A stretch of DNA of 64,000 nucleotides from an uncultured cyanobacterium (GCA_963718615.1 OY970368.1:5920001-5984000), one strand, 5' to 3'; shown: positions 3,345 through 50,599, numbered from the stretch's first letter. The notes: a model not told the origin generated them from the letters alone. Numbers and translations: made by a program.

Positions 3345-3580
3345 GGTGTGATATTCCCTGAGAACGGTGAGTGAAGCCGTTTGATTAGCTTGTCTCTACT
3401 TTCCCAGGGGTCTCAGATTCTGTCGATACAGGATCCGTCAGAGTTTTCGGGACCAAAAGATAAGGATTTGTTCACAAAGCGCTTCCAATTGCAGCAAACT
3501 ACAGGAAAATACAGCGATCGCCCCGGTAAACTACTGAAATCCCTGTGTCTATCTGTGCATTCATGCGCGATCGCAAACCA

Positions 3581-5101
3581 ATGGGGGCTAACGAGGCTCT
3601 GCAATTTATTAACGAGGTGCTGACCCAGGAGCTGGGTGAGCAGGCGCTGAATGATCTTCAGCAGGAGCTTTTGCGAGGGGTCTGGGTGGGAAAAAGCTAC
3701 AAGGAGATTCACCGGGACTTTCCTGTCTGTGGCCTAGAACATCTCAGCCGGAATGTGGCTTCTCAGCTTTGGCAACGGTTAAGCAAGGTGACGGGGGAGA
3801 AGGTCAGAAAGACCACTGTGCGGACGGCGATCGCCCGCGCCATCGAACAGCGACAATGGCAGCCTCTGGGATATTCTACGCCTCAGTCCTTAAATCCGCA
3901 GCCTTCTGCCGAAGATTTCACAGAAGCTTTCATGGAAGATTGCACAGAGGCCTTCACGGAAGCTGCTTCAGAGGCATCAGAGCTTCACCCAGCGCCGCAA
4001 TCTATCCTAGCGGAAGCGGACGGAGATTTTTCTGATTCTGGAGAATTTCCCGATCGCGGCTTTCCGGAGGCCCATGAACAACCCCAGCTTAGTTGGGTAG
4101 AAGCTCCGGATACGAGCATTTTTTATGGGCGTAAACAGGAACTCCAGGAGCTCGACCAGCGGATTCGGCTAGATGGCTGTCGGCTTTTGGTTCTCTGCGG
4201 TACGGCGGGAGTTGGTAAGACGCTGCTGGCCAGTAAGCTCGGGCAGCAGGTGAAGCAGCAGTTTAAGCAGATGGTCTGGAAGTCGCTGCGCGACTCGCCG
4301 CCGCTGCCGTTGGAGCATTTGATCGCGGACTTGATGCGATCGCTCACCGGATCTCCCACGGCGCTCAATTCTCCAGCGGTTCCAACCTCCTTAGATCTGG
4401 TGAAATACTTATTTGAACAAAGCTGTTTGATTGTATTGGATAGCTTTGAGACCGTGCTTCTGGGGGGAGACGACGAAGGTCGCTATTGCCGGGGGTACGA
4501 GGCCTATCGCGATTTGATTTTGCGGCTGGGCAGCACAGCCCATCAGAGTTGTGTGGTGCTGACCACGCGGGAAAAACCCCAAGAAGTGGCAACGTTGGAA
4601 GGACCGGAGGGGCGAACCGTCTGTCTGACCTTGCAGGGGCTCAAGGAACTGGATGCCCAGGATTTGCTAGAAAGTAAAGGGCTGTGGGCGGATTCCCCAG
4701 GGGCTTGGCTACCGCTGATGCAGGCTTGTGATGGCAATCCTCGGGCGCTGCAGGCGATCGCCAGTCAATGTCGCGAATTGTTTGATGGCAATGCCCAGCT
4801 CCTGCTGCGCTATCTTCGGCCCTGCATCGACTCTGACATTCTGCAACTCCAGGCGGCGCAGTGGCAGCGACTTTCGCGCGCTGAACAGCAGACGTTGCAG
4901 GCGTTGCTGCAAGCGCGTCAGCAGCCCCGCACAGTGCCGACGTTGCTTTATTTTACGGAGGTGCAGCCCATTCCAGAGGTGGCTCCGGAGCGGTTGCCGA
5001 TGGTGTTGCAGTCGTTATTGAGGCGATCCCTCGTGACGAAATCCGGGGCCTATTATGCAGTAGTGCCGTTAATGGAGCAGTATCTCCGATCCATGGGCTG
5101 A
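3581..5101 (+). CDS. NB-ARC/STAND NTPase with N-terminal helical (HTH-like) domain and no C-terminal WD40/TPR repeats
   Basis: WVEAPDTSIFYGR, Walker A GTAGVGKT, Walker B CLIVLDSFE, LTTRE, GNPRAL; start 3581 inferred (ORF open from 3545). Confidence 0.85.
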   Translation: MGANEALQFINEVLTQELGEQALNDLQQELLRGVWVGKSYKEIHRDFPVCGLEHLSRNVASQLWQRLSKVTGEKVRKTTVRTAIARAIEQRQWQPLGYSTPQSLNPQPSAEDFTEAFMEDCTEAFTEAASEASELHPAPQSILAEADGDFSDSGEFPDRGFPEAHEQPQLSWVEAPDTSIFYGRKQELQELDQRIRLDGCRLLVLCGTAGVGKTLLASKLGQQVKQQFKQMVWKSLRDSPPLPLEHLIADLMRSLTGSPTALNSPAVPTSLDLVKYLFEQSCLIVLDSFETVLLGGDDEGRYCRGYEAYRDLILRLGSTAHQSCVVLTTREKPQEVATLEGPEGRTVCLTLQGLKELDAQDLLESKGLWADSPGAWLPLMQACDGNPRALQAIASQCRELFDGNAQLLLRYLRPCIDSDILQLQAAQWQRLSRAEQQTLQALLQARQQPRTVPTLLYFTEVQPIPEVAPERLPMVLQSLLRRSLVTKSGAYYAVVPLMEQYLRSMG

Positions 5102-7347: not shown

Positions 7348-9393
7348 ATGAACTTTTTGCAGGATTTAGACCAGGTGGCGATCGCCCGCCAAAAGGCCGT
7401 AACTCATCTGGGCCAGATCATCCATCTTCTGAGCGAGTCTGAAACTGCCGAGCCAGGTCGATCGGGGGCGCTAGAGCTGAGCCAAGCGGTGGAAACCCTC
7501 AAAACCACCCGGCAAAACCTGGAAATGGGGGTGTTTCGGCTGTTGGTCCTGGGGGATCTGAAGCGGGGGAAAAGTACGCTGCTGAATGCCCTCTTGGGCG
7601 ATCGCCTCCTGCCCAGTGATGTGACGCCTTGCACGGCGGTCCTGACGGTGGTCAAGTATGGGCCGCAAAAGCAGGTGACGGTGTATTTTGTGGGCGATCG
7701 CCCCCCGCAAACCCTGAGTTTTGACGCCTTTCGCGAAACCTACACGATTTCCCCCGACGAAACCAAACGGCTGGAAGCGGAGCAACAATTGGCCTTTCCA
7801 CAGGTCAGCCATGCGGTCGTCGAGCATCCGCTGCCGCTGCTGCAATCGGGAATTGAGCTGATCGACACACCGGGGCTGAACGACACCGAAGCCCGCAATC
7901 GTCAGGTCTTGGACTATCTCAACAGTTGCCATGCAGTTCTGTTTGTGCTCAGCGCCTCCCAGCCCTGCACGCTAGAGGAGCGGCGGTATTTGCAAAACTA
8001 TTTGCTCAATCGGGGGTTGACGGTCTTTTTCCTAATCAATGGCTGGGACCGGATTCGGGACGGGTTGGTGGATCCAGAAGACGCCAATGCAGTTGCTGAG
8101 GCAGAAGCGAAGGTTCGACAGGTGTTTCAGGCCGGTTTGGGTGATGCGGTGACGACGGAGGCGTATGGCGATCGCGTCTTCGAAATTTCGGCGCTGCAAG
8201 CCCTGCGCCAGAAGCTCAAGCATCCCGAAGCAACCCTGGAAGGCACGGGACTGGATCGGTTTTTGGCGACGTTGGGGCAATATTTAGCTCGCGATCGCGC
8301 TCCAGCGGAACTCCAGCGCGTCCAAGCCCTGGCCCAGCAAACCCATCAGCGGGTGCGGGAGGCGATCGAACGGCGGATTCCCCTGTTGGAACAAAGCCAG
8401 ATGGAATTGGAGGCCAACATTGCGTCGATCCAGTCGGAATTTGACCAGTTGGCGGCAATTCGGGACCAGTTTGGCCAATTGATTCAGCGCACCCGAGAGG
8501 AACAGGCGGGGGCGATCGCCGAGTCATTTAAAACCTATATTCTCAAACTGGAACTGACGTTTGAAGAGGACTTTGTCGCCTCCCAGCCAGACCTAGAATT
8601 TCTGCAATTTATCCAAAAGGAAAATCGCGCTAAGTTTCACCGCCAGTTTCGCCAAGCCTTCGAACGCTACATGAACGATCGCCTGGTGGCCTGGGAATTC
8701 ATGGCAAAACAGAACCTCGGCAAAAGTTTTGATCAGCTCCAGGAAGAGGCTAAGGTCTATGCAGATGCCTATGCAAAAGTGATTGATGTCATGAATCAGA
8801 AGCTGTTGGGCGATCGCTTTACCCTCTTCGAGCAACAGTACAAGTCGGAGGAGGGACAGGCTTGGTTGGATGCGATCGCAGAGATTTTCGAAGCCCTGCC
8901 GGATCAGCTTAACCAAAGCATCCGGCCCTTCAATCAGTTTTGGCAGCAGGTCTTGCTCTATGCCTGTATCTACGCAGCGGTGAATATTGCCGTAATTTTA
9001 GTCGGTATTGTTTTCAGCAGTTTGTTCCTCAGCATTGTGGCGGCGTTAGCTGTAGGAGCAGGGGTTGTGGGAGCGCAGGCAGAAGTTGTGCGGCAAACTT
9101 TTCTTAAGAAAACCAAGGAAGAGTTCGTCAAATGTTTGCCTCAAATTGCCGATGAGCAACAGCCGCTGATTCGTCGTGCAGTCCAGCGATGCTTTGACAA
9201 CTACGAAGCGGAGGTGACAGAACGGATCAATGGCGACATTGGCCGACGCCGCGCCGAGCTCAACAATCTGCTCAAGCAAAAGGAATCGACAGCGGTGAAT
9301 CAGGGGCAAGAGGTTCAGCGATTGCGGCAGTTGGAGCAGAGCCTAACGGAGCAAGTGCAGCAGCTTGGACAGGTTATCCCCCAGACTGATTGA
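7348..9393 (+). CDS. Bacterial dynamin-like GTPase
   Basis: G1 GDLKRGKST, G2 TPCTA, G3 DTPG, G4-like NGWD; helical stalk; long hydrophobic segment near the C-terminus. Confidence 0.88.
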   Translation: MNFLQDLDQVAIARQKAVTHLGQIIHLLSESETAEPGRSGALELSQAVETLKTTRQNLEMGVFRLLVLGDLKRGKSTLLNALLGDRLLPSDVTPCTAVLTVVKYGPQKQVTVYFVGDRPPQTLSFDAFRETYTISPDETKRLEAEQQLAFPQVSHAVVEHPLPLLQSGIELIDTPGLNDTEARNRQVLDYLNSCHAVLFVLSASQPCTLEERRYLQNYLLNRGLTVFFLINGWDRIRDGLVDPEDANAVAEAEAKVRQVFQAGLGDAVTTEAYGDRVFEISALQALRQKLKHPEATLEGTGLDRFLATLGQYLARDRAPAELQRVQALAQQTHQRVREAIERRIPLLEQSQMELEANIASIQSEFDQLAAIRDQFGQLIQRTREEQAGAIAESFKTYILKLELTFEEDFVASQPDLEFLQFIQKENRAKFHRQFRQAFERYMNDRLVAWEFMAKQNLGKSFDQLQEEAKVYADAYAKVIDVMNQKLLGDRFTLFEQQYKSEEGQAWLDAIAEIFEALPDQLNQSIRPFNQFWQQVLLYACIYAAVNIAVILVGIVFSSLFLSIVAALAVGAGVVGAQAEVVRQTFLKKTKEEFVKCLPQIADEQQPLIRRAVQRCFDNYEAEVTERINGDIGRRRAELNNLLKQKESTAVNQGQEVQRLRQLEQSLTEQVQQLGQVIPQTD

Positions 9394-9434: not shown

Positions 9435-10169
9435 TTAGAGATCCTCAGGGCGAATGCCAAGTTCCAACAGCTTAGTCCGTAAACGAGCATTTTCTGTTTC
9501 TATGGTTTGTTGCGTTGCCGTCAAGGTCTGGTTTGCCTTGAGTAAGGCTTGATTGGCCTCGGATAGCTCGTCGGGGGTTAGGAGCTTTTCTCCGGTGTCC
9601 TCACGGTAAAACCGCAGCAAACCGTCTTCAACGACCAATCTTAACTGGAGGACTTCGCTGCGGCGATCGCCCACCACTTGGTAGCGCTCACCATCATGGC
9701 GGTAGCCCAACAAATGCTCCGCAATCCACTCCCCCTTGGGATCAAATTGCCAGTATTCTCGTACACCCAGTTGCTCATAAAGTAACTTTTTGAAGGTTTG
9801 ATCCTCATCCTGCGTTCCCTTCGAGGTGACTTCAAAAATAATGGCTGGGACTTCACCTTCCTCCCAAAGTTTGTAATGCTCCCGTCCACCAGGTAGCACA
9901 TCAAAAACCACCATGACATCTGGAGCTACACGCAATCTGGGGTAGCCTTGGGCATAGTAGAGAAATTGGTTGGAGAGGACGGTGCCGGGGTGATCCGGCG
10001 ATCGCGAAAACCGGCTCGATTCTGTGTTGAGATATTGTTTGAGAATCGAGAAGATCGTGATGATCGCCACTAAATGTACATAGGTCTCTGCCAACGGTTC
10101 ACCATCACTGCTGGGATAGACAATCTCAAGGGATTGGGGCGGCTGGGACTGAGCGCTCAGAATGGTCAT
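9435..10169 (-). CDS. Uma2 family (DUF820) endonuclease-like protein with coiled-coil tail
   Basis: YPSSDGEPLAET, APDVMVVF, FEVTSKGT...D...K...Y...GVREYW.FDP. Confidence 0.9.
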   Translation of the reverse strand: MTILSAQSQPPQSLEIVYPSSDGEPLAETYVHLVAIITIFSILKQYLNTESSRFSRSPDHPGTVLSNQFLYYAQGYPRLRVAPDVMVVFDVLPGGREHYKLWEEGEVPAIIFEVTSKGTQDEDQTFKKLLYEQLGVREYWQFDPKGEWIAEHLLGYRHDGERYQVVGDRRSEVLQLRLVVEDGLLRFYREDTGEKLLTPDELSEANQALLKANQTLTATQQTIETENARLRTKLLELGIRPEDL

Positions 10170-11721: not shown

Positions 11722-12468
11722 TTAGGCTTGCGATGCTTGACCGAAGCGCTCACGCCGTTTTTTGAGCACACTGACCCCAAAACCGATCAGCCCTGGTAGC
11801 AATGCCGGTGTTGGCACTGAGGTGGGAGGGACTGTTTGAATTTGGGCTGTGAATTGGGTGGAGTCACTCAGATCATTGCCTTCAGGGTTAATGGCAAAAT
11901 CCAAAACACTGCCGACTGCCAAGGTCTGCTGTAATGAGTAGTTAAAGACGGTGAAATTATTGGTGGCCTGCTCGTAGATCTTTGCGCCATCTAGAAAGAT
12001 ATAGCCGATGGTGCCGTCATTCGATTGCGAGTTGATGTCGCCAAAGCGTCCAGAGATCGTCACGTCGCCTGCAAAATCGCTGACCCAACGCCGCACGGCC
12101 CAATGGTTTTCTGTATCCGGGAATGTGGCGGGGTGACCCATGACATTGTTCAGCATCGTCCAAGTGTATTGGGTTGACGGGTCGTATTGAGTCTCATTAG
12201 GCTGATCGATGGTTTCTTCCCAGAACTGTCCGCTGTCAAAATATTTCATTTCCTGGAAAGTCGAGGTCGGGATCGAACTAAAGGCTGTTTGGTTTTTAGG
12301 GATTTCGTAGTAGCCGTAGTACCAGCCATCTTGACCCTGTTGATCTGAAAAATCTTGTACAGAATCTGCAATTACAGCTGCTTGCACAGACTGGGGTGGG
12401 AGGGCGATCGCCCCACAAAATAAGCCCATTGCCAGAGGAATTGTCCTAAACATGCTAAGCTTAACCAT
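11722..12468 (-). CDS. Secreted protein with PTPA-CTERM (PEP-CTERM-like) sorting signal
   Basis: Signal peptide ending near VQA-A; C-terminal VPTPALLPGLIGFGVSVLKKRR; start at 12468 or 12453. Confidence 0.8.
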   Translation of the reverse strand: MVKLSMFRTIPLAMGLFCGAIALPPQSVQAAVIADSVQDFSDQQGQDGWYYGYYEIPKNQTAFSSIPTSTFQEMKYFDSGQFWEETIDQPNETQYDPSTQYTWTMLNNVMGHPATFPDTENHWAVRRWVSDFAGDVTISGRFGDINSQSNDGTIGYIFLDGAKIYEQATNNFTVFNYSLQQTLAVGSVLDFAINPEGNDLSDSTQFTAQIQTVPPTSVPTPALLPGLIGFGVSVLKKRRERFGQASQA

Positions 12469-12818
12469 AATATCCACCGACTTCAACACAGAGATACAAC
12501 AGGTGGTAGATTCTGATTTTGATCCTGACTTGGCCGCAATAGAGACGTGTGCGCAGATTGAGTTCACTGACTGTACTCAATATTACTTTTCCCAGAATGA
12601 ATCTAGCGATCGCACCTCTAGGGTTTATCAAAGTTTTATCGAACGAGCCAGAATTATCTCGATTCCTCGCGGTTCCTCCCCTAGGACTGTTACGTTTCGA
12701 TAGATTGCTTAATCTTGTAAGAGGTTTTAGGCCAATTGGCTACGCGCAATGGCTGAAGCTAGGAGGGAGAGGCTGGGGCGATCGCCTATGGGCTAGTCGT
12801 GAACGTCGTCTTTCTCGA

Positions 12819-13073
12819 TTAGCGGGTAACAATCTCTCCTCTCCACAGGTACTGGCTTAATTGCTGACCGACTCGGCGTTCTTCTTCTGGGTGCTTGGGT
12901 AATTGCCAGCGCAGGGCATCGTAGAGGAGATGACGGTAGAGGTCGAAGCTGGCTTCGAGGAGGTCGCTGTAGGTAGTGGTAGTGGCGATCGCCCAACGAT
13001 AGGCAAACAAGGCAGAAGATAATCCTAGTGGTATGACCAACAAATCTCAAGATTTGCCCCCCATGGCCCAAAT
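12819..13073 (-). pseudogene. Orphan 3' fragment paralogous to the C-terminus of the upstream 4-TM protein
   Basis: LGLSSALFAYRWAI...EASFDLYRHLLYDALRW...ERRVGQ aligns with LGLLSAWFAYRWAI...EATFDLHRHLLYQALRW...ERRVGQ; in-frame TGA just upstream of the track ORF. Confidence 0.75.
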
Positions 13074-13086
13074 TCCTCGGAATCAG

Positions 13087-14098
13087 TCAGTTCAGATAGC
13101 TTATGAAGCCGGATTGTAGGTATCGGGTCAGGTCTTGACCCACTCGGCGTTCAATGGTTGGGTCGGGAGGGAGAGTCCAGCGGAGGGCTTGGTAGAGCAG
13201 GTGGCGATGGAGGTCGAAGGTGGCTTCGATTAGTTCGCCGTAGAGGCTGGCAGCGGCGATCGCCCAGCGGTAAGCAAACCAAGCTGAGAGTAGGCCCAGC
13301 AACAAAGGCCAGGTCGCTAAAGGCGTTTGGGCAAGGGCGGCCCAGCCGCAGAAGAGGAGGCTCCACAACCAGACGCGGACGGCAGTGTTGAGGTCGGCGC
13401 GGGCTTCTTGGAGGTCTTTTTTGACGGGGTCGGGCAGGAGCATCCAGAAGGCGAGACCAGCAAATGATGGCGTCGAGGCCATATTTGTGGAGGGGTTGGC
13501 GCTCGGCGGCGCGGAGCAGGTTGCCGAGGCGGGTGGGCATGAGGTCGGTGTTGGTTTGGGGCAGGGCTCGCAGTTCTTGCCGGATGCGGATTAGGGTTTG
13601 TTGTTGCTGGGGGGTGAGGAGGTGCTCGTTGAGTTGGAGATAGTCGGTGCGTTGGGCGGGGGTGAGCTGGGCTGCACCTTGGGTTTCGATGATCGTTTTT
13701 AGGGTTTGGAGTTTTGTGCGTTGTTGGGCTTCGAGGCTGCGGAGGGTTTGGCTGTCTTTGCTGAGTTGGGTTTTGCGATCGCGATACTGCCGAATTCGCC
13801 ATTGTTTAAGCGGACGGATCCAGAGGGGGCCGTAGCCTTCGAGGAAGCGCAGGGTGGCGAAGTCGAAGCGTTGGACAATGAAGGCGGAGGTGGCGATCGC
13901 GCAAAAGACACCGACAAGCAAGGCGGTTTGCAGGGGGTTGGGATATTGGCTGAATTGTGCGATGAGGGGTTTCCAGCCCCAGCGTTGCAGGATGGCGGCG
14001 AAGCCCCCGAGCCAGAAGACAAAGGCGGGGGTGAGTAGGGTGGCGACCCATTGTTCGGCGAGTTTACCGCCAAAGCTTTCGAGGACTTTTGCGGTCAT
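13087..14098 (-). pseudogene. CHAT-associated 4-TM membrane protein (about 336 aa if repaired), split by a 1-nt frameshift near 13447-13450
   Basis: Frame 1 ends ...PTRLGNLLRAAE...YGLDAIICWSRL and frame 2 continues WMLLPD...; the junction reads CGC CTT C TGG ATG. Confidence 0.8.
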
Positions 14099-14107
14099 GG
14101 ATGCACC

Positions 14108-14503
14108 TTAGGACTGGGCGGGAACGAGGGGAACGAGATGGGTGGGGCAGAGAGGGATGGGCTCATTCCCTTCCCGATACCAAGTGTAGTCATCGCCGAT
14201 CGGGCAAACATATTTCGTTGCAGGTTGGAGTGCTTCGTTGCCAGCGAGACGAGAATCGCCGAGGGAACGTGTAATCTGGTCTGGATTTTCCCCCTTGAGA
14301 TAGCGCTTCATCCAGGCTCGGGTGGACTCGAATTGCCGCAGTTCTTCGGTTATTAAAAGTTCAACTGATTGTCCAGGTTTTGTTTGGGTGAGTAGGATTT
14401 GTAATCGTTGATCAACCTGTTCCGCAGTTGCCGAGTCGAGTAATGTTGACAGCTCAGAACGAATCGCATGGGCAGCGTCAGTGATGGTTCTGGGTTGAGT
14501 CAT
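14108..14503 (-). CDS. 131-aa CHAT-associated protein: helical N-terminus plus C-terminal YVCP-x17-CPTH motif
   Basis: Clean ORF ending 9 nt upstream of the TM gene; putative metal-binding tail YVCPIGDDYTWYREGNEPIPLCPTHLVPLVP. Confidence 0.8.
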   Translation of the reverse strand: MTQPRTITDAAHAIRSELSTLLDSATAEQVDQRLQILLTQTKPGQSVELLITEELRQFESTRAWMKRYLKGENPDQITRSLGDSRLAGNEALQPATKYVCPIGDDYTWYREGNEPIPLCPTHLVPLVPAQS

Positions 14504-14557
14504 GTTGGGTTACCTGGGGTGCAAAGGATGGCTCAGGGGCAGGCAGATTCGATCAGG

Positions 14558-14983
14558 TTATTGCCAGGGGTTGAGCAGGCTTAGTCCCGTGGTGCTGAAG
14601 TCTGATACGTTACGGGTTACAAGGATTATTCTATGCCGTAGGGCGACAGCGGCGATGAGAGAGTCCATTACCGCCATGGGGGTTCCTTGCTGTCGTTGTT
14701 GGGCTGTCATCTGTCCCCAAATTAAAAATACGTCGCTATCTAGGGGCAGAATTCGGTTGGCAAATTGATGAAAGAGGGATTCGTTGAGCCAGATCTCTAG
14801 CTCGGTGCGTCGATTGGATGGGGGGCGGTTATTGATGCCGAACTGGATTTCGCCAATGGTGACAGCACTGAGGAAGACTTGCTCCGGATCTGTGCGGTTG
14901 AGCCAATCGATGACTTTGGGTTCGGGCTGGGGTTTGACGAATTCGGAAATGACGCAGGTATCGAGGAGGTATTGCAGGGTCAT
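14558..14983 (-). CDS. vapC: VapC family PIN-domain toxin
   Basis: YLLDTCVISE, TIGEI, MDSLIAAVAL, LVTRNVSDF, NPW. Confidence 0.92.
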   Translation of the reverse strand: MTLQYLLDTCVISEFVKPQPEPKVIDWLNRTDPEQVFLSAVTIGEIQFGINNRPPSNRRTELEIWLNESLFHQFANRILPLDSDVFLIWGQMTAQQRQQGTPMAVMDSLIAAVALRHRIILVTRNVSDFSTTGLSLLNPWQ

Positions 14984-15231
14984 AGCTCAATCGGACGGAG
15001 GCTGGTGCTGGGATTGCGGTCCAGGTTTAGTCCACTATCGCGCAGCGGGGAAGCGAGGAAGAAGTCTCCGAGGCGCTGTTGGGGGGCGGTGAGTTTTTTG
15101 TATTTGGCGAAGGGCATGACCACGGCGATTTCGACGCCATGGCGGGTGATGATTTGGGGGCCTTCGGAGAGTGCCCGATCGATTAGCTCAGAGAGTTTGT
15201 TTTTGGCTTCTTGGAGTTGCCAGGAGGTCAT
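14980..15231 (-). CDS. Phd/YefM family antitoxin
   Basis: WQLQEAKNKLSELIDRALSEGPQIITRHG; 4-nt overlap with vapC. Confidence 0.92.
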   Translation of the reverse strand: MTSWQLQEAKNKLSELIDRALSEGPQIITRHGVEIAVVMPFAKYKKLTAPQQRLGDFFLASPLRDSGLNLDRNPSTSLRPIEL

Positions 15232-15305
15232 GGTGGTTGGGAGATTCCAGCTAGACTGTCTAGATTATAGTCGGAGCTGTTCGGGTTTTGGGGGGACGGG
15301 AGGGG

Positions 15306-18300
15306 CTAGATGCCGGTGTAGCTGAAGGCTGCCCAGTGGAAGGGGTGGGCGTAGGTGCGATCGCTGGGGTCTTCCCAGGCGAGTTTGTTGTAGAGGTCGC
15401 GGGCGATCGCCTCTGGGAGGCCGAGGAAGCGATCGCGGGGGGCTTGGGGAGGAGGGCTGTCGGGGAATTCTGGGAGTACGGCTTTTAGTGCCTGGATTTT
15501 TTCAGCGTTGGTGGTGTCGCGGAGCCAGATTTGGGCTTGGCGCAGGGCTTGGTCGGGTTCAAGCTGGTGGCTGCGCCAGAGGTCGTAGAATTTGGTGAGC
15601 AGGAGCATGGTGCTGAGGTCGCTGACGGCCCAGAGGGAGGCGATGACGGCGGCGACTCCGGCTTGGAGGAGGCCGGTGGGGAGGCTGATGGCTTCGTCGG
15701 CGTTTTCGGTGCCGATCATGCCGGTTTCGCAGGCGGAGAGGATGGCGAGGCGGAGGCCGCTGTTGCCCTTTTCGGTATCGGCGAGGTTGAGGGCGAAGAT
15801 GTCTTTGAGGGTGAGGAGGCCGTCGCTCATGAGCAGGCCGCTTTGGAGGGGTTCGCGCAGGTTGGCGGTGCCGTGGCAGGCGAAGTGGGCGATCGCCACG
15901 TTGGTCAGTTGCGATCGCACCTGTTCTACGGTGGCTTGGTCATGACGAAGGACGGTGGAATTCTGGAAGGTGGCGATCGCGGCTTGTACTTCGCGTTCTG
16001 AGCTAGGCAGGTCTTGTTTGGGGTTGTCGATGGCTAGGATCGAATTAGCCTGGACGCGATCGGCAATGGCTTTTGCGGCGGTAAGGGATTTGGCGTTGGG
16101 GGCGTAGGTGATCTGGAGGTGGTCGAGGGCGTAGCGGCGGCCTGTGGGTTGGGTTTTGTCTGGGGTCCAGGCGGCGTGGAGGGGGAGGAGGCTGATGTAG
16201 CCGGTGGGGATGAGGGTGGTGCGATCGAATCCGAGGTCTTTGAGCTGCTGAACCATTGGCCCGATTAGGGGTTCCCAGATTTGCTGGGTGATGGCGTCGA
16301 TTATGTTGTGCCAGGTTTGGCGATCGTTGCTGGCGTTGTTGTAGGCGGCGAACCAGGTTTGGATGAGGTCGGTGAGTTGGGTGTCGGTGAAGTCGTTGAG
16401 CCAGATTGGATAGATGTCGTTGGGGGTGACGACGAGGGCGAGGCTGCCTGCGGGGGTGGTGAGGAGGTAGGTGAGGGGGGTGTCTGGGGTGACGGCTTTT
16501 TGAACGTCTTCGAGTGTGGGGAGGGTGAGGAAGGTTTCGTAGCCGGGTTGTTGGCGGATTTGGTCGATGGTTTCGGTGAGTTCTTGGCGGAGGCGGGTGG
16601 CTTCGTTGCGGAGGGTTTCGGGGGTGATGCTGTGGCGATCGACGCTGGTCATGCGATCGCGCTGTTGGGCTTCGAGGTTGCGGAGTTGTTGGGTGATGGT
16701 TTGGTATTGAATGTAGGGATCTGGAGCTAGAGTTTGCAGTTGGGTGAGGTTGGCGCGATCGCGATCGAGGCTTTCACTGAGTCCACGGGCGCGACCTTGC
16801 TCTAGGGCGAGGACGGCTTTGGATAAATTTCTTGTGCGAGCGAAGGCATAGGCGGCACGGTGGGGAAGATTGGCGGTCTCGGATAGTGAGGCAGATTTGC
16901 TGTCGAGGAGGGTGGCGCTTTGATAGAGACTTTCTGCGGCGGTAAGTGCTTGGTCATAAATAGGAACGGCTTCTGACCAGCGTTGCTGATCGCTGTAGAG
17001 ATTGGCTAGACTGCGAGCGGTTATTCGACATTCATAGGAGAATCGTGTTGGTTCAAAGATGGTCAGGCTAGCGCAGTAATTGGCGATTGCTTGTTCAATA
17101 TTCTTCGCACGATCGCCTTCGATGCGGAAATAGTATGCAACTGCCAGATTCATGGTGGTTTGTGCCCACTCGAACGGCATGGCGGTTTGCGTCCTCACGG
17201 TCAAGGCTCGCTTATATGCGGCGATCATTTGTTCAATGTTCTCGGCGTGATCGCCTTCGATTCGGGAATAGTATGCACTTGCCAGGCCCATGGTGGTTTG
17301 TGCCCACTCGATCGGCATCGCCGCTTCCGTCCTCACCGTCAAGGCTTGCTCGTAGGCTTTGATCGCCTGTTCGATATTCTCCGCGCGATCGCCTTTAATA
17401 CGGTCAGCGTATGAATTTGCCAGGTTCATGGTGGCTTGTGCCCACTCGAACGGCATGGCGGTTTGCGTCATCACCAACAAGGCTTGCTCGTAGTAGGCAA
17501 TTGCTTGTTCAATATTCTTGGCGCGATCGCCTTTGATGCGTTGTTTGTATACAGCTGCCAGATTCATGGTGGTTTCTGCCCACTCGATCGGCATGGCCGC
17601 TTCCGTCCTCACGGTCAAGGCTTGCCCGTAGGCTTTGATCGCCTGTTCGATATTCTCCGCGCGATCGCCTTTAATACGGTCAGCGTATGAATTTGCCAGG
17701 TTCATGGTGGCTTGTGCCCACTCGAACGGCATGGCGGTTTGCGTCATCACCAACAAGGCTTGCTCATGGAAGGCGATCGCTCGTTCAATATTCTCGGCGC
17801 GATCACCTTTAATGCGGTTATTGTATGCAAGTGCCAGATTCATGGTGGTTCGTGCCCACTCAATCGGCATGGCGGTTCGTGTCATCACGGTCAATGCTTG
17901 CTGGTAGAAGGCGATCGCTTGTTCAATATTCTCGGTGCGATCGCCTTTAATGCGGTTATTGTATGCAAGTGCCAGATTCATGGTGGTTCGTGCCCAATCG
18001 AACGGCATGGCGGTTTGCGTCGTCACCAACAAGGCTTGCTCGTAGAAAGCGATCGCTCGTTCAATGTTCTTGGAGCGATCGCCTTTGATGCGGTTATTGT
18101 ATACATTTGCCAGACCCATGGTGGTTTGTGCCCATTCGATCGGCATTGCGGTTTGCGTCCTCACCCTCAATGCTTGCTCGTAGAAGGCGATCGCTTGTTC
18201 CATATTCTCGGAGCGATCGCCTTTGATGCGGTTCTTGTATGCGGTTGCCAAGTTATTGGTGGTTTGTGCCCACTCGATCGGCATTGCGGTTTGCGTCATC

Positions 18301-19403
18301 ACCGTCAAGGCTTGCTCGTAGAAGGCGATCGCTTGTTCAATGTTCTTGGAGCGATCGCCTTTGATGCGGTCAGAGTATGCAGTTGCCAGACCCATGGTGG
18401 TTTGTGCCCACTCGATCGGCATCGCCGCTTCCGTCATCACCGTCAAGGCTTGCTCGTAAGCTTTGATCGCTCGTTCCATATTCTCGGCTCGATCGCCTTT
18501 GATGCGTTCATAGTATGCGGTTGCCAAGTTATTTGTGGTGGTGGCCCACTTGATCGGCATCGCCGCTTCCGTCCTCACTGTCAAGGCTTGCTCGTAGGCT
18601 TTGATCGCTTGTTCCATATTCTCGGCACGATCACCTTTGATTCGGTTCTTGTATGCGGTTGCCAAGCTAATGGTGGTTTGTGCCCAATCGATCGGCATCG
18701 CCGCTTGCGTCCTCACCGTCAAGACTTGCTCGTAGGCTTTGATCGCCTGTTCGATATTCTCCGCCCGATCGCCTTTGATGCGGAAATAGTATGCGATTGC
18801 CAAGTTCATGGTGCTTTGTGCCCACATTGGCGGATTTGCTGTCTGGGTTCTAACCGACAAAACAACCGCACACCCGGCCAGGGCGATTTCGATATTATTA
18901 GCCCGACTCCCCAATGGAAAATTCTGGAAATGGATGCTGATATTTTCAACTAGAGCTGCTATTGCTTCGGCTGTCTCTGCGTCAGCAAACTCAAGCACAG
19001 CCTTAGCCCAAGTCTGCAATGTTTGAGCCAATCCTAGATGCAGTTTGGTTTGATTGGCCGCTAAAATGGAGTGCACAGCCTGTTGGCCCGTCCCAAAATT
19101 CTCCAATTCAGCCTTGAAAATTGCCATCAATAATGGCATCAGCGCCGCTTCATCCAAATTATCTGCATTCGTTGATTTCACTAATCCCAACCCTTGCGCC
19201 AACTGCCCCGCAAATTGCCGCAGCCTTCCCGCATTACCTTCACCTTGACTCTCCATCCAGTCAGCATATTGCCCCATCACCGCCACCAGCCCCTCATCCA
19301 CCAACCCCGCATTCGCCTCAAGCAGCGCCGCCTCTTCCCCCTGAGCACAGCCCAGCAGTTGCTCAATCAACCGCGCGTAGGCATTCAATCGTTCCTCACC
19401 CAT
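15306..19403 (-). CDS. TPR-repeat CHAT (caspase/HetF-like) protease, 1365 aa
   Basis: 13 tandem 46-aa TPR-like repeats; LEQGRARGL; intact His-Cys dyad HFACHG and LSACETG; C-terminal HPFHWAAF. Confidence 0.93.
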   Translation of the reverse strand: MGEERLNAYARLIEQLLGCAQGEEAALLEANAGLVDEGLVAVMGQYADWMESQGEGNAGRLRQFAGQLAQGLGLVKSTNADNLDEAALMPLLMAIFKAELENFGTGQQAVHSILAANQTKLHLGLAQTLQTWAKAVLEFADAETAEAIAALVENISIHFQNFPLGSRANNIEIALAGCAVVLSVRTQTANPPMWAQSTMNLAIAYYFRIKGDRAENIEQAIKAYEQVLTVRTQAAMPIDWAQTTISLATAYKNRIKGDRAENMEQAIKAYEQALTVRTEAAMPIKWATTTNNLATAYYERIKGDRAENMERAIKAYEQALTVMTEAAMPIEWAQTTMGLATAYSDRIKGDRSKNIEQAIAFYEQALTVMTQTAMPIEWAQTTNNLATAYKNRIKGDRSENMEQAIAFYEQALRVRTQTAMPIEWAQTTMGLANVYNNRIKGDRSKNIERAIAFYEQALLVTTQTAMPFDWARTTMNLALAYNNRIKGDRTENIEQAIAFYQQALTVMTRTAMPIEWARTTMNLALAYNNRIKGDRAENIERAIAFHEQALLVMTQTAMPFEWAQATMNLANSYADRIKGDRAENIEQAIKAYGQALTVRTEAAMPIEWAETTMNLAAVYKQRIKGDRAKNIEQAIAYYEQALLVMTQTAMPFEWAQATMNLANSYADRIKGDRAENIEQAIKAYEQALTVRTEAAMPIEWAQTTMGLASAYYSRIEGDHAENIEQMIAAYKRALTVRTQTAMPFEWAQTTMNLAVAYYFRIEGDRAKNIEQAIANYCASLTIFEPTRFSYECRITARSLANLYSDQQRWSEAVPIYDQALTAAESLYQSATLLDSKSASLSETANLPHRAAYAFARTRNLSKAVLALEQGRARGLSESLDRDRANLTQLQTLAPDPYIQYQTITQQLRNLEAQQRDRMTSVDRHSITPETLRNEATRLRQELTETIDQIRQQPGYETFLTLPTLEDVQKAVTPDTPLTYLLTTPAGSLALVVTPNDIYPIWLNDFTDTQLTDLIQTWFAAYNNASNDRQTWHNIIDAITQQIWEPLIGPMVQQLKDLGFDRTTLIPTGYISLLPLHAAWTPDKTQPTGRRYALDHLQITYAPNAKSLTAAKAIADRVQANSILAIDNPKQDLPSSEREVQAAIATFQNSTVLRHDQATVEQVRSQLTNVAIAHFACHGTANLREPLQSGLLMSDGLLTLKDIFALNLADTEKGNSGLRLAILSACETGMIGTENADEAISLPTGLLQAGVAAVIASLWAVSDLSTMLLLTKFYDLWRSHQLEPDQALRQAQIWLRDTTNAEKIQALKAVLPEFPDSPPPQAPRDRFLGLPEAIARDLYNKLAWEDPSDRTYAHPFHWAAFSYTGI
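17031..18824 (-). repeat. Intragenic tandem array of 13 x 138-nt units
   Basis: Unit W-A-x-T-T-x-x-L-A-x-x-Y-x-x-R-I-K-G-D-R...M-P-x-E; units 9 and 11 near-identical at 276-nt spacing. Confidence 0.92.
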
Positions 19404-19621: not shown

Positions 19622-20215
19622 CTACAACACCTCACTCAAATCCACCACCAATCCCGGCAATACATCCTCACCACTGAGTTGACCAGGAGAGACCTGCACC
19701 TCCGCAGTAGCTTCACCCACACGATAAATCTCCACAGTTTTCTGTTGGGGATTCACCAACCAACCCAAACGCACACCATTCTCACGATACTCCTGCATCT
19801 TCGCCTGCAAAGTTGTCAAACTATCACTTTTGGACCGCAACTCAATCACAAAATCCGGAACGATCGCCGGAAAAGTCACCGCTGCTGACAGCCCAGCCAG
19901 CTTCTCTTGGGCAATCCAAGTAACATCAGGCGATCGCACTGCTCCAGAAGGCAACACAAACCCGCCCGAAGAATCAAAAACCTCACCCAACCGACTTTGT
20001 AAATTCCACTGGTACACCTGTGAAGCAAGATTAATATTTTTTTTCGAGCTTTCCCAACCGACAGGTGGCATAGTCACCAATTCTCCGTTAGCCGTCAACT
20101 CAAAATTTAGGTCTGGATTATCTAGGCAAATCTGCTGGAATTCAGCAAGAGTCAACCGCAGCGTAACATTGCGGATATCAATGAGTAGCGGTTGAGATGT
20201 CTCTAGAACCTGCAT
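19622..20215 (-). CDS. Uma2 family (DUF820) endonuclease-like protein
   Basis: NPDLNFELTANGELVTMPP, FDSSGGF, RSPDVTW, PDFVIELRS, KMQEYRENGVRLGWLVNP. Confidence 0.92.
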   Translation of the reverse strand: MQVLETSQPLLIDIRNVTLRLTLAEFQQICLDNPDLNFELTANGELVTMPPVGWESSKKNINLASQVYQWNLQSRLGEVFDSSGGFVLPSGAVRSPDVTWIAQEKLAGLSAAVTFPAIVPDFVIELRSKSDSLTTLQAKMQEYRENGVRLGWLVNPQQKTVEIYRVGEATAEVQVSPGQLSGEDVLPGLVVDLSEVL

Positions 20216-48976: not shown

Positions 48977-50599
48977 TTAATAGTGAGTATCTCCATCTTG
49001 AAAGGTTTGAATAATGAATTCCAGGGTTTGCCCCTGGGTACTGCCCAGCCGCAATTGGGTGCCTGGCTGAAGTGCAATTTCTTGGTGATGCACCCGCTGC
49101 CAACCTTCCCGGCCTGCAATCAGCGTGCCGTACCGGGAAAAATCCCGGAGAAAATAGGTTGGCGCTTCGTCACCCATGCCGACTCGGCAAATAATTTCGG
49201 CATGTTTTTGGGACACCCAAGGCTCCTGAACGACTACATCATTTTCAGGACGACGGCCTACCCGCATCAACCCGCCTCGAATACTCCAAACCTTGAGCGG
49301 ATCGTTGAGCATACGCACCTGAGCTAAGGGCCAGCGGGATTCATGCCATTGGGTGGTTGAGTTGGTGGTCGGCAGCTCGGTTTTGCCTTCTAGGGGCTGC
49401 ATCACTTCCCCGTTAAATTCAGGGTGCATATACAGCACCGGTAGGGTCCAGCCCGGTTGGTTGAATTTGTAGAGAGTGAGTAGTTGCTGGCGGGCCATGG
49501 CGATTGCTTGATCGACGGGGGCGCGATCGCTCAACGCCTGGGAAAAAGCTTCCACAAAACAAAGGGCTTCTTCATCGGCGATCGAATCTCGCATCCCCAC
49601 AACGGCAGGAACCCCATGGTGAATCAAAACCTCTGCCAAACTACTGCGGGGAACCGTTTGGGCTATCCCCGTGGCCTCATCTACCATTGTGTAGGGCTGG
49701 GCACCCCAACAGGCATTGAAAATCGCCACGGCCACCTGGCAGCGCGTCAGCACCTGGGCCAATTCCGTACCGCTGAGGGTGATTTGGGGAGCCAGCAAGA
49801 CCCGACCGCCATCGGGGGCCGGAACCCCATGACCGGCATAAAAGAAAATGGTGTAGCCCCCTTGCTCCAGTTGGGTTACGAGTTCCGCTGGGCTCGGTTG
49901 GATGAGCATATCCACCTGACAAGAGGTGGAAAATCCCGTTCCACCGGGTTTGAGCTGGCTCGGATGTTGCAGATGCTCGGCAATAATGCGGGCTTCCTGT
50001 TCGAGTTGCAGAGCTGGAATCTCTGCCTCCCCCGCTTGACCCAGGACCAAAAGCACCTTCAGGACTTGGGTCAGGCGGGGGGGCATGAGCGGATCGACAT
50101 CGCTCGTGGTGCGGCTAAAGAGAATCTGCTGACTCAGTGACAGGGCCTGTTTCCCCACTTGGGGCTGCATAATTTCCCAGGGCAAGCGGGCCAATTCAGG
50201 GTCCCGTAGTTCTAGCCGCAGCCGTAAGGGCTTGCCCTGGCCCATGGCAATGCCTAAGCTTTGGCTATAGGCCGTGTGAATCGAACCATGGAAGAGCCAC
50301 TGCCAGAGCTGCAGGCCAAAATGCTGCATCAAACGGCTGCTGTAGCTGCCTTCCATCTCCGTCAAGGAAAGATCAAGACGGTCTAGGTCTTCCGGCAAAC
50401 CCTGGGTAATTTCTGGGGAGGCAAACAACGCGGCCCAAGCATGCCAAGCCTGACTGAGGGGCTCGGGCCACAGCCGATCGTGGTGAACATAGCCACCGGG
50501 ATAGGGCGCTTGCACAACCCATGTGGCCCAGTGCCCCGGACTCGAAGCCTGGAGCGGGGCGATCGCAACATTCAAACAGGGATTCTCAAACCCAATCAT
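48977..50599 (-). CDS. HetF-like CHAT protease with C-terminal FHA domain
   Basis: LRLRL...LARLPWE, FYAGHG, FNACWGA dyad, WTLPVLY; FHA motifs VGRRPENDV...VSQKHA...SRYGT. Confidence 0.88.
   Translation of the reverse strand: MIGFENPCLNVAIAPLQASSPGHWATWVVQAPYPGGYVHHDRLWPEPLSQAWHAWAALFASPEITQGLPEDLDRLDLSLTEMEGSYSSRLMQHFGLQLWQWLFHGSIHTAYSQSLGIAMGQGKPLRLRLELRDPELARLPWEIMQPQVGKQALSLSQQILFSRTTSDVDPLMPPRLTQVLKVLLVLGQAGEAEIPALQLEQEARIIAEHLQHPSQLKPGGTGFSTSCQVDMLIQPSPAELVTQLEQGGYTIFFYAGHGVPAPDGGRVLLAPQITLSGTELAQVLTRCQVAVAIFNACWGAQPYTMVDEATGIAQTVPRSSLAEVLIHHGVPAVVGMRDSIADEEALCFVEAFSQALSDRAPVDQAIAMARQQLLTLYKFNQPGWTLPVLYMHPEFNGEVMQPLEGKTELPTTNSTTQWHESRWPLAQVRMLNDPLKVWSIRGGLMRVGRRPENDVVVQEPWVSQKHAEIICRVGMGDEAPTYFLRDFSRYGTLIAGREGWQRVHHQEIALQPGTQLRLGSTQGQTLEFIIQTFQDGDTHY

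Follow-up and report, generated by a model that had tools for sequence, protein, structure and literature searches.

Results

A conserved three-gene module in a cyanobacterial genome

We identified a three-gene locus on the minus strand of a 64,000-nucleotide (nt) stretch of DNA from an uncultured cyanobacterium (GCA_963718615.1 OY970368.1:5920001-5984000, hereafter the window; positions are counted from its first nucleotide). The locus (12819-19403) encodes a protease that combines TPR repeats with a CHAT domain (TPR-CHAT), a small protein with a Cys/His tail, and a membrane protein with four transmembrane (TM) segments. The same three-gene module is conserved in other genomes, and the copy described here has probably decayed; the trio probably represents a protease-triggered membrane-damaging switch for defence or cell death. 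A preliminary description of this DNA had placed a CHAT gene, an inserted toxin-antitoxin (TA) pair, the small gene and the membrane gene on the minus strand, and each of these was found where it had been placed.

Linkage of the three genes across genomes, metagenomes and plasmids

The three genes had been proposed to form one functional unit, a view that would fall if homologues of the two partner proteins were not linked to CHAT genes elsewhere. Linkage to CHAT was found in two phyla, with the genes arranged in two different orders. In the genome collection, all eight loci with a homologue of the small protein (8/8) have a CHAT gene upstream and a membrane gene downstream on one strand. The membrane protein family is present in 10 of 401 cyanobacterial genomes, the source genome included. 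Ten loci were drawn from the nine other family-holding genomes (400 others sampled) and analyzed by tblastn (L and P numbers denote loci and proteins, respectively; L028 lies on the same contig as L002). Five are full triads, L033 has a divergent small gene of 144 amino acids, L032 consists of a CHAT gene and a truncated membrane gene, L036 is a distant variant with a CHAT gene and L037 is a fragment; the tenth (L030) is considered below.

Of 80 loci obtained from metagenomes, 64 have 400 nt or more of upstream sequence, and in 51 the sequence continues for over 300 nt past the small gene. The small gene directly precedes the membrane gene in 63 of the 64 informative loci, usually at a distance of 7-60 nt, and no small gene was detectable in L116. 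A CHAT gene is found upstream on the same strand in 38 of the 51 loci. Two of the other 13 have a protein composed of Peptidase_C14, nSTAND1 and WD40 domains, located upstream in L073 and downstream in L071, and three have a divergently oriented CHAT gene, confirmed by Pfam in L102 and L119 and recognized in L104 by a purpose-built hidden Markov model only; the eight that lack a protease are discussed below. L093, which is outside the set of 51, has a CHAT-TPR gene downstream. We also noted a second CHAT gene directly after the membrane gene (L059:9042-10574, Pfam CHAT 6.9e-67) and loci with two tandem CHAT genes upstream (L072:3-6077; L074:1-7589, L074/L075).

A tblastn search of plasmids with P0052, an intact homologue of 336 amino acids used as reference for the membrane protein, returned 26 records (Ralstonia 19, Streptomyces 5, Nostoc 1 and Rhodococcus 1), for which the PLSDB gene tables are incomplete; six plasmids were examined. 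The Rhodococcus opacus plasmid has the order small (132 amino acids), membrane (324) and CHAT (1320), and the Streptomyces goshikiensis plasmid the order small (141), membrane (307), a 351-amino acid protein and CHAT (908). On the plasmid of Streptomyces NBC_01276 a CHAT gene (1023) is followed by a 124-amino acid gene and a membrane gene (302), and on that of Streptomyces NBC_00158 a CHAT gene (406) lies beside a 487-amino acid member of the membrane family. The Nostoc C052 plasmid carries the small (126) and membrane (306) genes next to a 1557-amino acid WD40 protein annotated as 'caspase family'. The profile of the small protein matched the Rhodococcus protein (1.9e-24) and the Streptomyces goshikiensis protein (4.7e-16), and gave no match at E ≤ 1e-5 to the 124-amino acid protein of Streptomyces NBC_01276.

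The linkage of the trio is thus strongly supported. Because the neighbourhood is conserved, a chance association is excluded, and the abundance of CHAT genes alone does not explain the linkage, since the source genome contains 50 CHAT-domain matches above the Pfam cut-off and a single membrane-family locus. The preliminary description is extended in three respects: a C14 caspase-STAND-WD40 protein can replace the TPR-CHAT protease, the membrane family is very large, and a displaced 3' remnant of the membrane gene is present in the window (see below for the last two).

The TPR-CHAT protease

The protease gene (15306-19403, minus strand) is an open reading frame (ORF) of 1365 amino acids that, as supported by Pfam, encodes sensor repeats and a clan-CD protease. 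The CHAT catalytic domain (PF12770; amino acids 1038-1362, positions 15318-16292, minus strand) scores 191.9 bits against a family cut-off of 24 (E 2.1e-56). Matches to TPR_10 (E 2.9e-34) and TPR_12 were obtained as well. The TPR-like repeats are encoded by a tandem array (17082-18825, minus strand) with a period of 138 nt, 12.6 copies and 82% matches according to Tandem Repeats Finder, and the repeats are also visible in the translation. The segments around the His (FACHG) and the Cys (SACETG) of the CHAT domain, 'faCHGtan' and 'lsACETgm', align in register with 'ilCHGean' and 'lgACETdl' of the solved Csx29 chain 8d9f_A (1.8e-8). We take the His of CHG and the Cys of ACET to be the catalytic residues of CHAT. 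Because both motifs align with those of solved Csx29 CHAT chains, the His-Cys dyad is, as judged by alignment, intact. The protease does not belong to the Csx29 family itself, as the NCBIfam Csx29 model (NF041237) reaches 66.4 bits against a cut-off of 300 and its match is restricted to the CHAT part. A weak PADLOC row, PDC-S05 (3.8e-6), covers the TPR region. From the domain assignments, the sensor-protease of the module is TPR-CHAT here and C14 caspase-STAND-WD40 in some relatives.

The small Cys/His-tailed protein

The small gene (14108-14503, minus strand), defined by its ORF, its homologues and a structural model, encodes a two-domain protein of 131 amino acids. The model (predicted local distance difference test score, pLDDT, 81.9) consists of a helical N-domain (residues 7-85), a flexible linker (86-91) and a tail with two Cys and one His that forms a small beta unit (96-128). 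Solely residues 86-91, which surround the invariant Gly88, are modelled with low confidence. Residues A10, L18, A27, L38, W64, G88, Y98, C100, C119 and H122 are invariant in 23 aligned members. Among 124 distinct homologues whose tail is complete, two loose patterns are common: 119 have a hydrophobic-x-Gly motif at most 32 amino acids ahead of the tail, and 120 have a basic-small pair such as R78-S79, R78 being located within a predicted helix.

The tail reads YVCP-x17-CPTH-LVPLVP, in agreement with the pattern given in the preliminary description. CPTH is the commonest tail ending (77/124), and a second Cys near the first one occurs in 40/124. The tail would fit a three- or four-ligand metal site. 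The likeness to heavy-metal-binding modules put forward in the preliminary description is one of pattern (YxCP...CP..LVP). With regard to the heavy-metal mini-domain of P1B-ATPases, the only invariant tail residues are C100, C119 and H122, the Foldseek row 8ovl is weak (E 3.6, probability 0.38, 37 columns), and no Pfam match to the tail was obtained among the 23 members scanned at E ≤ 10. A Pfam domain was found in 0 of 50 homologues, and a Foldseek search of the model against the PDB returned nothing at E ≤ 0.001. The best row of a wide VIA-align search had a Z of 6.3, and CARD rows (Z 4.2-4.3) were within the noise. A death-fold for the six-helix N-domain may at most be taken as a lead. A weak PADLOC row, LmuA (0.0056), was found on the small protein. 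A search of 5.8 billion sequences identified a fusion protein (P0351, 606 amino acids) in which the N-domain stands ahead of a CHAT protease domain (E 1.5e-4). The idea of a homotypic adaptor was rejected, as comparison of the CHAT protease N-terminus with the small-protein N-domain gave an hhalign probability of 0.7%, meaning no likeness. In Elainella saxicola the small gene (L005:8407-9234) encodes 275 amino acids with the N-domain three times in tandem and one Cys/His tail; this tripling could be real or an assembly artefact.

The four-TM membrane protein

The membrane gene (13087-14098, minus strand) starts with an ATG at 14098, leaving 9 nt between the stop of the small gene and this ATG. 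It is broken in this copy and is covered by two ORFs, 13151-14098 (N part) and 13087-13482 (C part); intact relatives are 327-338 amino acids long. In P0052, hydrophobic segments are located at 18-36, 57-75, 240-258 and 270-288. The model of P0052 (pLDDT 88.7, predicted template modelling score 0.81) is helical throughout, has disorder limited to residues 1-7 and contains a long helical hairpin (92-177). The stretch 78-238 carries 25 Lys/Arg and is probably cytosolic by this composition, in which case both termini would be cytosolic as well. The combination of PTRLGNLLRAAE, YGLDA and W.RLW noted in the preliminary description is present and nearly invariant in 36 homologues, as part of a block (MPTRLGN...YGLDA..CW.RLW) that directly precedes TM3.

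A word index yielded 345 homologues of the membrane protein. In a profile search, 5970 cluster representatives were found at E ≤ 0.001, 3696 at E ≤ 1e-10 and 590 at E ≤ 1e-30. None of 36 family members scanned gave a credible Pfam match, Foldseek returned nothing from the PDB at E ≤ 0.001 for the model, and the VIA-align match (Z about 8) covers a generic helical hairpin alone. A search of the ESM Atlas yielded only unnamed clusters, in Cyanobacteriota, Actinomycetota and Pseudomonadota, and phage records gave no match to the membrane protein.

Comparison with known protease-effector systems

Neither partner belongs to a curated family, in line with the preliminary description: no match was found in Pfam, NCBIfam or PADLOC. 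Literature searches, whose coverage leaves out most subscription journals, returned no description of the trio. According to a study on bacterial gasdermins, the genes next to them encode C14 or CHAT proteases that carry TPR, LRR, WD40 or NACHT parts, and a cut in a flexible loop strips off an inhibitory piece, which leads to membrane damage (bioRxiv 10.1101/2021.06.07.447441). The protease adjoining the effector in these operons is of the C14 or CHAT type and is joined to TPR, WD40 or NACHT/STAND. The same arrangement of a protease with a sensor beside a candidate effector is found in the trio (TPR-CHAT here, C14+nSTAND1+WD40 in L071 and L073). A gene for an effector with a gasdermin fold is absent; the membrane partner is modelled as all-helical with four TM segments. 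In contrast to a gasdermin, the effector of the trio would comprise two proteins, one soluble with a Cys/His tail and one all-helical with four TM segments, and the proposed latch acts in trans, whereas that of gasdermin is a C-terminal peptide acting in cis. The preliminary description had relied on cleavage after Arg, as by HetF-type CHAT proteases, in proposing that a cut in the Arg-containing linker of the small protein would free a fragment gating the membrane protein. Cleavage after Arg does not hold as a general premise, because the same study reports that a gasdermin-associated CHAT protease of Runella cuts the flexible loop after Leu and requires Leu-Gly (bioRxiv 10.1101/2021.06.07.447441).

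A second group of relevant effectors is formed by EACC1 and Pepco, which a preprint (Evans et al., bioRxiv 10.1101/2025.11.14.688446) describes as small proteins that lack enzymatic domains and whose genes adjoin those of cysteine or serine proteases fused to varied sensors. Site-specific cleavage turns them into pore formers, and they are frequent among cyanobacteria and actinomycetes. The trio resembles these systems in having a small protein beside a sensor-fused protease. It differs in that EACC1 and Pepco are there single soluble proteins that form beta-rich pores, whereas the effector of the trio would consist of a pre-inserted helical membrane protein and a separate small protein. The ten protease-associated effector families named in the main text of Evans et al. 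do not include the pair, and its supplements could list more. Pfam-wide scans of 23 small and 36 membrane proteins gave no EACC1 or Pepco (Trypco) row, the presence of these models in the library copy being unconfirmed.

The ternary CATRA systems that include CATASP (Burroughs and Aravind, J Bacteriol 2020) are, as passages citing this work describe them, caspase-dependent conflict systems with three components and an associated small protein, and in this they resemble the trio. The trio is set apart from them by Pfam models. In the comparison with CATRA-type models suggested in the preliminary description, CATASP, CATRA-N and CATRA-C (PF20269, PF20270 and PF20271) had no match at E ≤ 0.001 in the source genome. 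CATASP was also without a match in the 401 cyanobacterial genomes, trio holders included; as no genome exceeded the cut-off, the search contains no positive control. On five trio-bearing plasmids, CATASP rows (E 0.018-0.085) occurred only away from the trio loci. Type III-E CRISPR Craspase is similar in that a TPR-CHAT protease (Csx29) with the same catalytic motifs cuts a neighbouring protein (Csx30); the trio differs from it in that its partners are unrelated to Csx30 and Csx31. No Cas genes were present among the neighbours scanned in the window.

Proposed mechanism

Because the small and membrane genes occupy the position of gasdermin, EACC1 or Pepco in known protease-effector operons, we lean modestly towards reading the trio as a protease-gated membrane effector. 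The effector would comprise a cytosolic small protein of about 130 amino acids and an inner-membrane protein with 2+2 TM helices around a cytosolic helical region of about 160 residues, as the models suggest. The repeat array of the protease would bind a ligand derived from an invader or from stress, and ligand binding would activate the protease. The active protease would then cut the linker of the small protein near the conserved hydrophobic-x-Gly (L86-A-G88), or at a basic site just ahead of it; from the model we infer that the flexible linker with the invariant Gly88 is the likeliest cut site. The membrane protein, bound and restrained by the small protein until then, would be freed and could permeabilize or depolarize the membrane, resulting in growth arrest or death (abortive infection or regulated death). 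Which way the signal runs, what the protease cuts and that the membrane is damaged are inferred by analogy with the systems above. This reading is favoured by the gene linkage, the N-domain-CHAT fusion, the repertoire of proteases and sensors shared with gasdermin operons, the anatomy of the small protein, and the patchy distribution and decay of the module. To the more specific proposal that the pair is a previously undescribed two-component counterpart of gasdermin, in which a membrane-resident helical protein is shut by a soluble, possibly zinc-binding latch and a TPR-CHAT or caspase-STAND-WD40 protease kills the cell by cutting this latch, we give somewhat less than an even chance.

The modelling of the small and membrane proteins as a pair, which the preliminary description had put forward, resulted in a weak pass. 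The complex prediction scored 0.34 (runs 0.27, 0.35 and 0.34), compared to 0.00 for the best of three controls, with at least 83% of contacts in common between runs and a partner pLDDT of at least 72. In the calibration of this score, the mark was reached by 116 of 157 solved complexes and by 2 of 215 mismatched pairs, yet scores of 0.60 or lower include just 18 of the 157 solved complexes and both mismatches that passed.

Several observations weigh against a protease-gated membrane effector. The weakness of the complex score is one of them. The occurrence of the N-domain in fusion with a CHAT protease suits an adaptor role of the small protein at least as well as a substrate role, pore formation is without backing from any fold match, and no model of PADLOC-DB v2.0.0 matches the partners beyond weak rows. 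The window does not qualify as a classical defence island. Exceptions to the linkage also exist. In L030 an orphan pair of small and membrane genes lies 9 kb from any CHAT gene, in a genome that also has a full triad. Eight of the 51 metagenome loci have no protease; five of these are short-flanked, and in L084, L100 and L114 none is found over several kb. The distant member on the Ralstonia plasmid has an unrelated small neighbour of 134 amino acids and no annotated CHAT gene. The metagenome counts overstate the independent support, because many loci are near-duplicates (e.g. L048/L049, L074/L075, L102/L104 and L120/L121). As a whole the mechanism is plausible by analogy.

Alternative explanations

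Signalling could run in the opposite direction, which we regard as unlikely: the membrane and small proteins would sense an event at the envelope, e.g. phage entry, the released small protein would bind the TPR array, and the CHAT protease would be the effector through broad or regulatory proteolysis. The fusion of the small-protein N-domain to a CHAT protease would be in agreement with such a route. The membrane protein is also the most conserved of the three (nearest relative 92%, versus 74% for the small protein), and a transmembrane anti-sigma factor that bears a CHAT domain and regulates defence loci has been published (PMC11506125). However, the pair also teams with C14-STAND-WD40 proteins, and such repeat or NACHT/STAND parts are taken as ligand sensors in two studies (10.1101/2021.06.07.447441; 10.1101/2025.11.14.688446). 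The orphan pair of L030, without an adjacent protease, does not fit a CHAT effector either. Moreover, it is the membrane gene that decays, with the CHAT gene remaining open, a pattern to be expected were the membrane gene the costly member.

Slightly more doubtful is a role of the small protein as a tether that docks the protease on the membrane protein, with the protease opening the latter by cutting its cytosolic hairpin or C-terminal tail. The sole flexible conserved motif found so far is the linker of the small protein, and the membrane protein is confidently modelled as helical, without a disordered loop except residues 1-7; both speak against this role. On the other hand, the length of the TM2-TM3 hairpin varies widely among homologues (total about 290 to 380 amino acids), the C-terminal segment has been swapped by recombination in the copy of the source genome, the complex prediction weakly favours contact between the small and membrane proteins, and in the N-domain-CHAT fusion a separate tether would be needless.

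A housekeeping or developmental circuit of regulated proteolysis in filamentous or multicellular bacteria, e.g. for control of a transporter or of cell-cell communication, would be in keeping with the hosts (cyanobacteria, Streptomyces and Rhodococcus), the housekeeping genes around the locus and the lack of a PADLOC model match, but is improbable given the sparse and patchy spread (10/401 cyanobacterial genomes), the location on plasmids, the frequent decay and insertions, the exchange of sensor types between loci and the 50 CHAT matches in the source genome, all of which are typical of conflict systems.

Death effectors gated by proteases (gasdermins, EACC1, Pepco and MBL nucleases) are increasingly recognized as a central principle of bacterial immunity and have parallels in animal pyroptosis. 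If a protease-gated membrane effector is the correct reading, the trio adds an effector that is built differently, from a helical membrane protein and a second protein serving as its cleavable latch, that is common to cyanobacteria and actinobacteria and is used with at least two kinds of caspase-like sensor. If the two-component gasdermin proposal is true, the four-TM family is among the larger unrecognized families of bacterial death effectors. The family is large and has no curated match in Pfam, NCBIfam or PADLOC, so that thousands of genes would gain an annotation once its function is known. The three-gene system is small and intact copies exist, which makes it directly testable.

State of the copy in the source genome

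Residues 1-219 of P0052 match positions 13442-14098, and residues 216-335 match 13108-13452 in another frame, indicating one extra base near 13442-13452. The first frame is good up to '...YGLDAIICWSRL', after which the protein continues as 'WMLLPDPVKK...' in the frame of the ORF at 13087-13482, and the extra base interrupts the W.RLW motif. A further ORF of 74 amino acids (12819-13043, minus strand) encodes a last TM helix and C-terminal tail. By identity comparison it is a remnant, now displaced, of a different 3' end that the membrane gene once had; it is 65% identical to the present C-terminus and 84% (57/68) identical to the C-terminus of P0051. P0051 is the protein to which the N part of the membrane protein is most closely related (92%). 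The present C-terminus is closest to P0056 and P0053. From this pattern we conclude that recombination with another allele gave the membrane gene a new 3' end.

Between the protease gene and the small gene lie a Phd/YefM-type antitoxin gene (14980-15231, minus strand, 83 amino acids; Pfam PhdYeFM_antitox 2.1e-17) and a VapC-type PIN toxin gene (14558-14983, minus strand, 141 amino acids; Pfam PIN 1.1e-14), which overlap at 14980-14983 and constitute a VapBC-type pair. Most relatives show the CHAT and small genes 19-80 nt apart without this pair, bearing out the earlier view of the TA pair as an insertion; nearly the same Phd/VapC pair is present in L065. Because the membrane gene is frameshifted as assembled and the VapBC pair is inserted, the copy in the source genome is probably inactive. 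Decay of the membrane gene is seen elsewhere too, with a frameshift in L001 and a truncation in L032. In L008 (L008:10364-12486, Leptolyngbya sp. Heron Island J) the membrane gene is interrupted by a DDE transposase gene of 451 amino acids (DDE_Tnp_1, 9.8e-13) and the CHAT gene is open.

Small selfish or TA-like genes have repeatedly entered the gap between the CHAT and small genes (14558-15231 in the window, and relatives). An MNT-like and HEPN-like pair, named from motifs, occupies this gap in L001:2068-2727 and L004:9297-9949. Other inserts are the Phd/VapC pair of L065:1540-2219, a PIN gene (L067:3285-3707), an MNT-like gene (L099:7225-7527) and a DUF7689 pair (L086:136-1078). Uma2 genes are inserted between the small and membrane genes in four metagenome loci and between the CHAT and small genes in one (L062:7406-7969; L065:2975-3538; L085:7385-7969; L112:1024-1716; L072:6188-6850, minus strand), their identity being Pfam-checked for L062 alone (3.1e-34). 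A recurring pair of tiny ORFs, one of about 61 amino acids (94 as called in L005) and one of 86-92 amino acids beginning with MQTRDRP, is also found between the CHAT and small genes (L005:7846-8399; L080:7131-7579; L089:2008-2471; L065:2272-2535; L032:10158-10544, minus strand). The MQTRDRP ORF occurs without its partner in L065 and L032, and both ORFs are absent from the window. Those scanned gave no Pfam match; the pair could be a fourth component or another insert.

Genomic surroundings

A scan of the window identified the housekeeping genes ChlP, NdhN, LdpA and NurA as well as Uma2 genes around the locus, the latter flanking it at 9435-10169 and 19622-20215. A scan for promoters and terminators gave counts not above those in shuffled sequence. 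None of the public sequencing runs held more than 0.13 of the sampled words, and no RNA run was listed as a holder. Nearby genes encode an NB-ARC/STAND-type NTPase (3545-5101, plus strand), a bacterial dynamin-like protein (7348-9393, plus strand) and a protein with a PTPA-CTERM sorting signal (11722-12567, minus strand). Another CHAT match is located within the window at 49466-50317 (minus strand), and two more lie just before the window.

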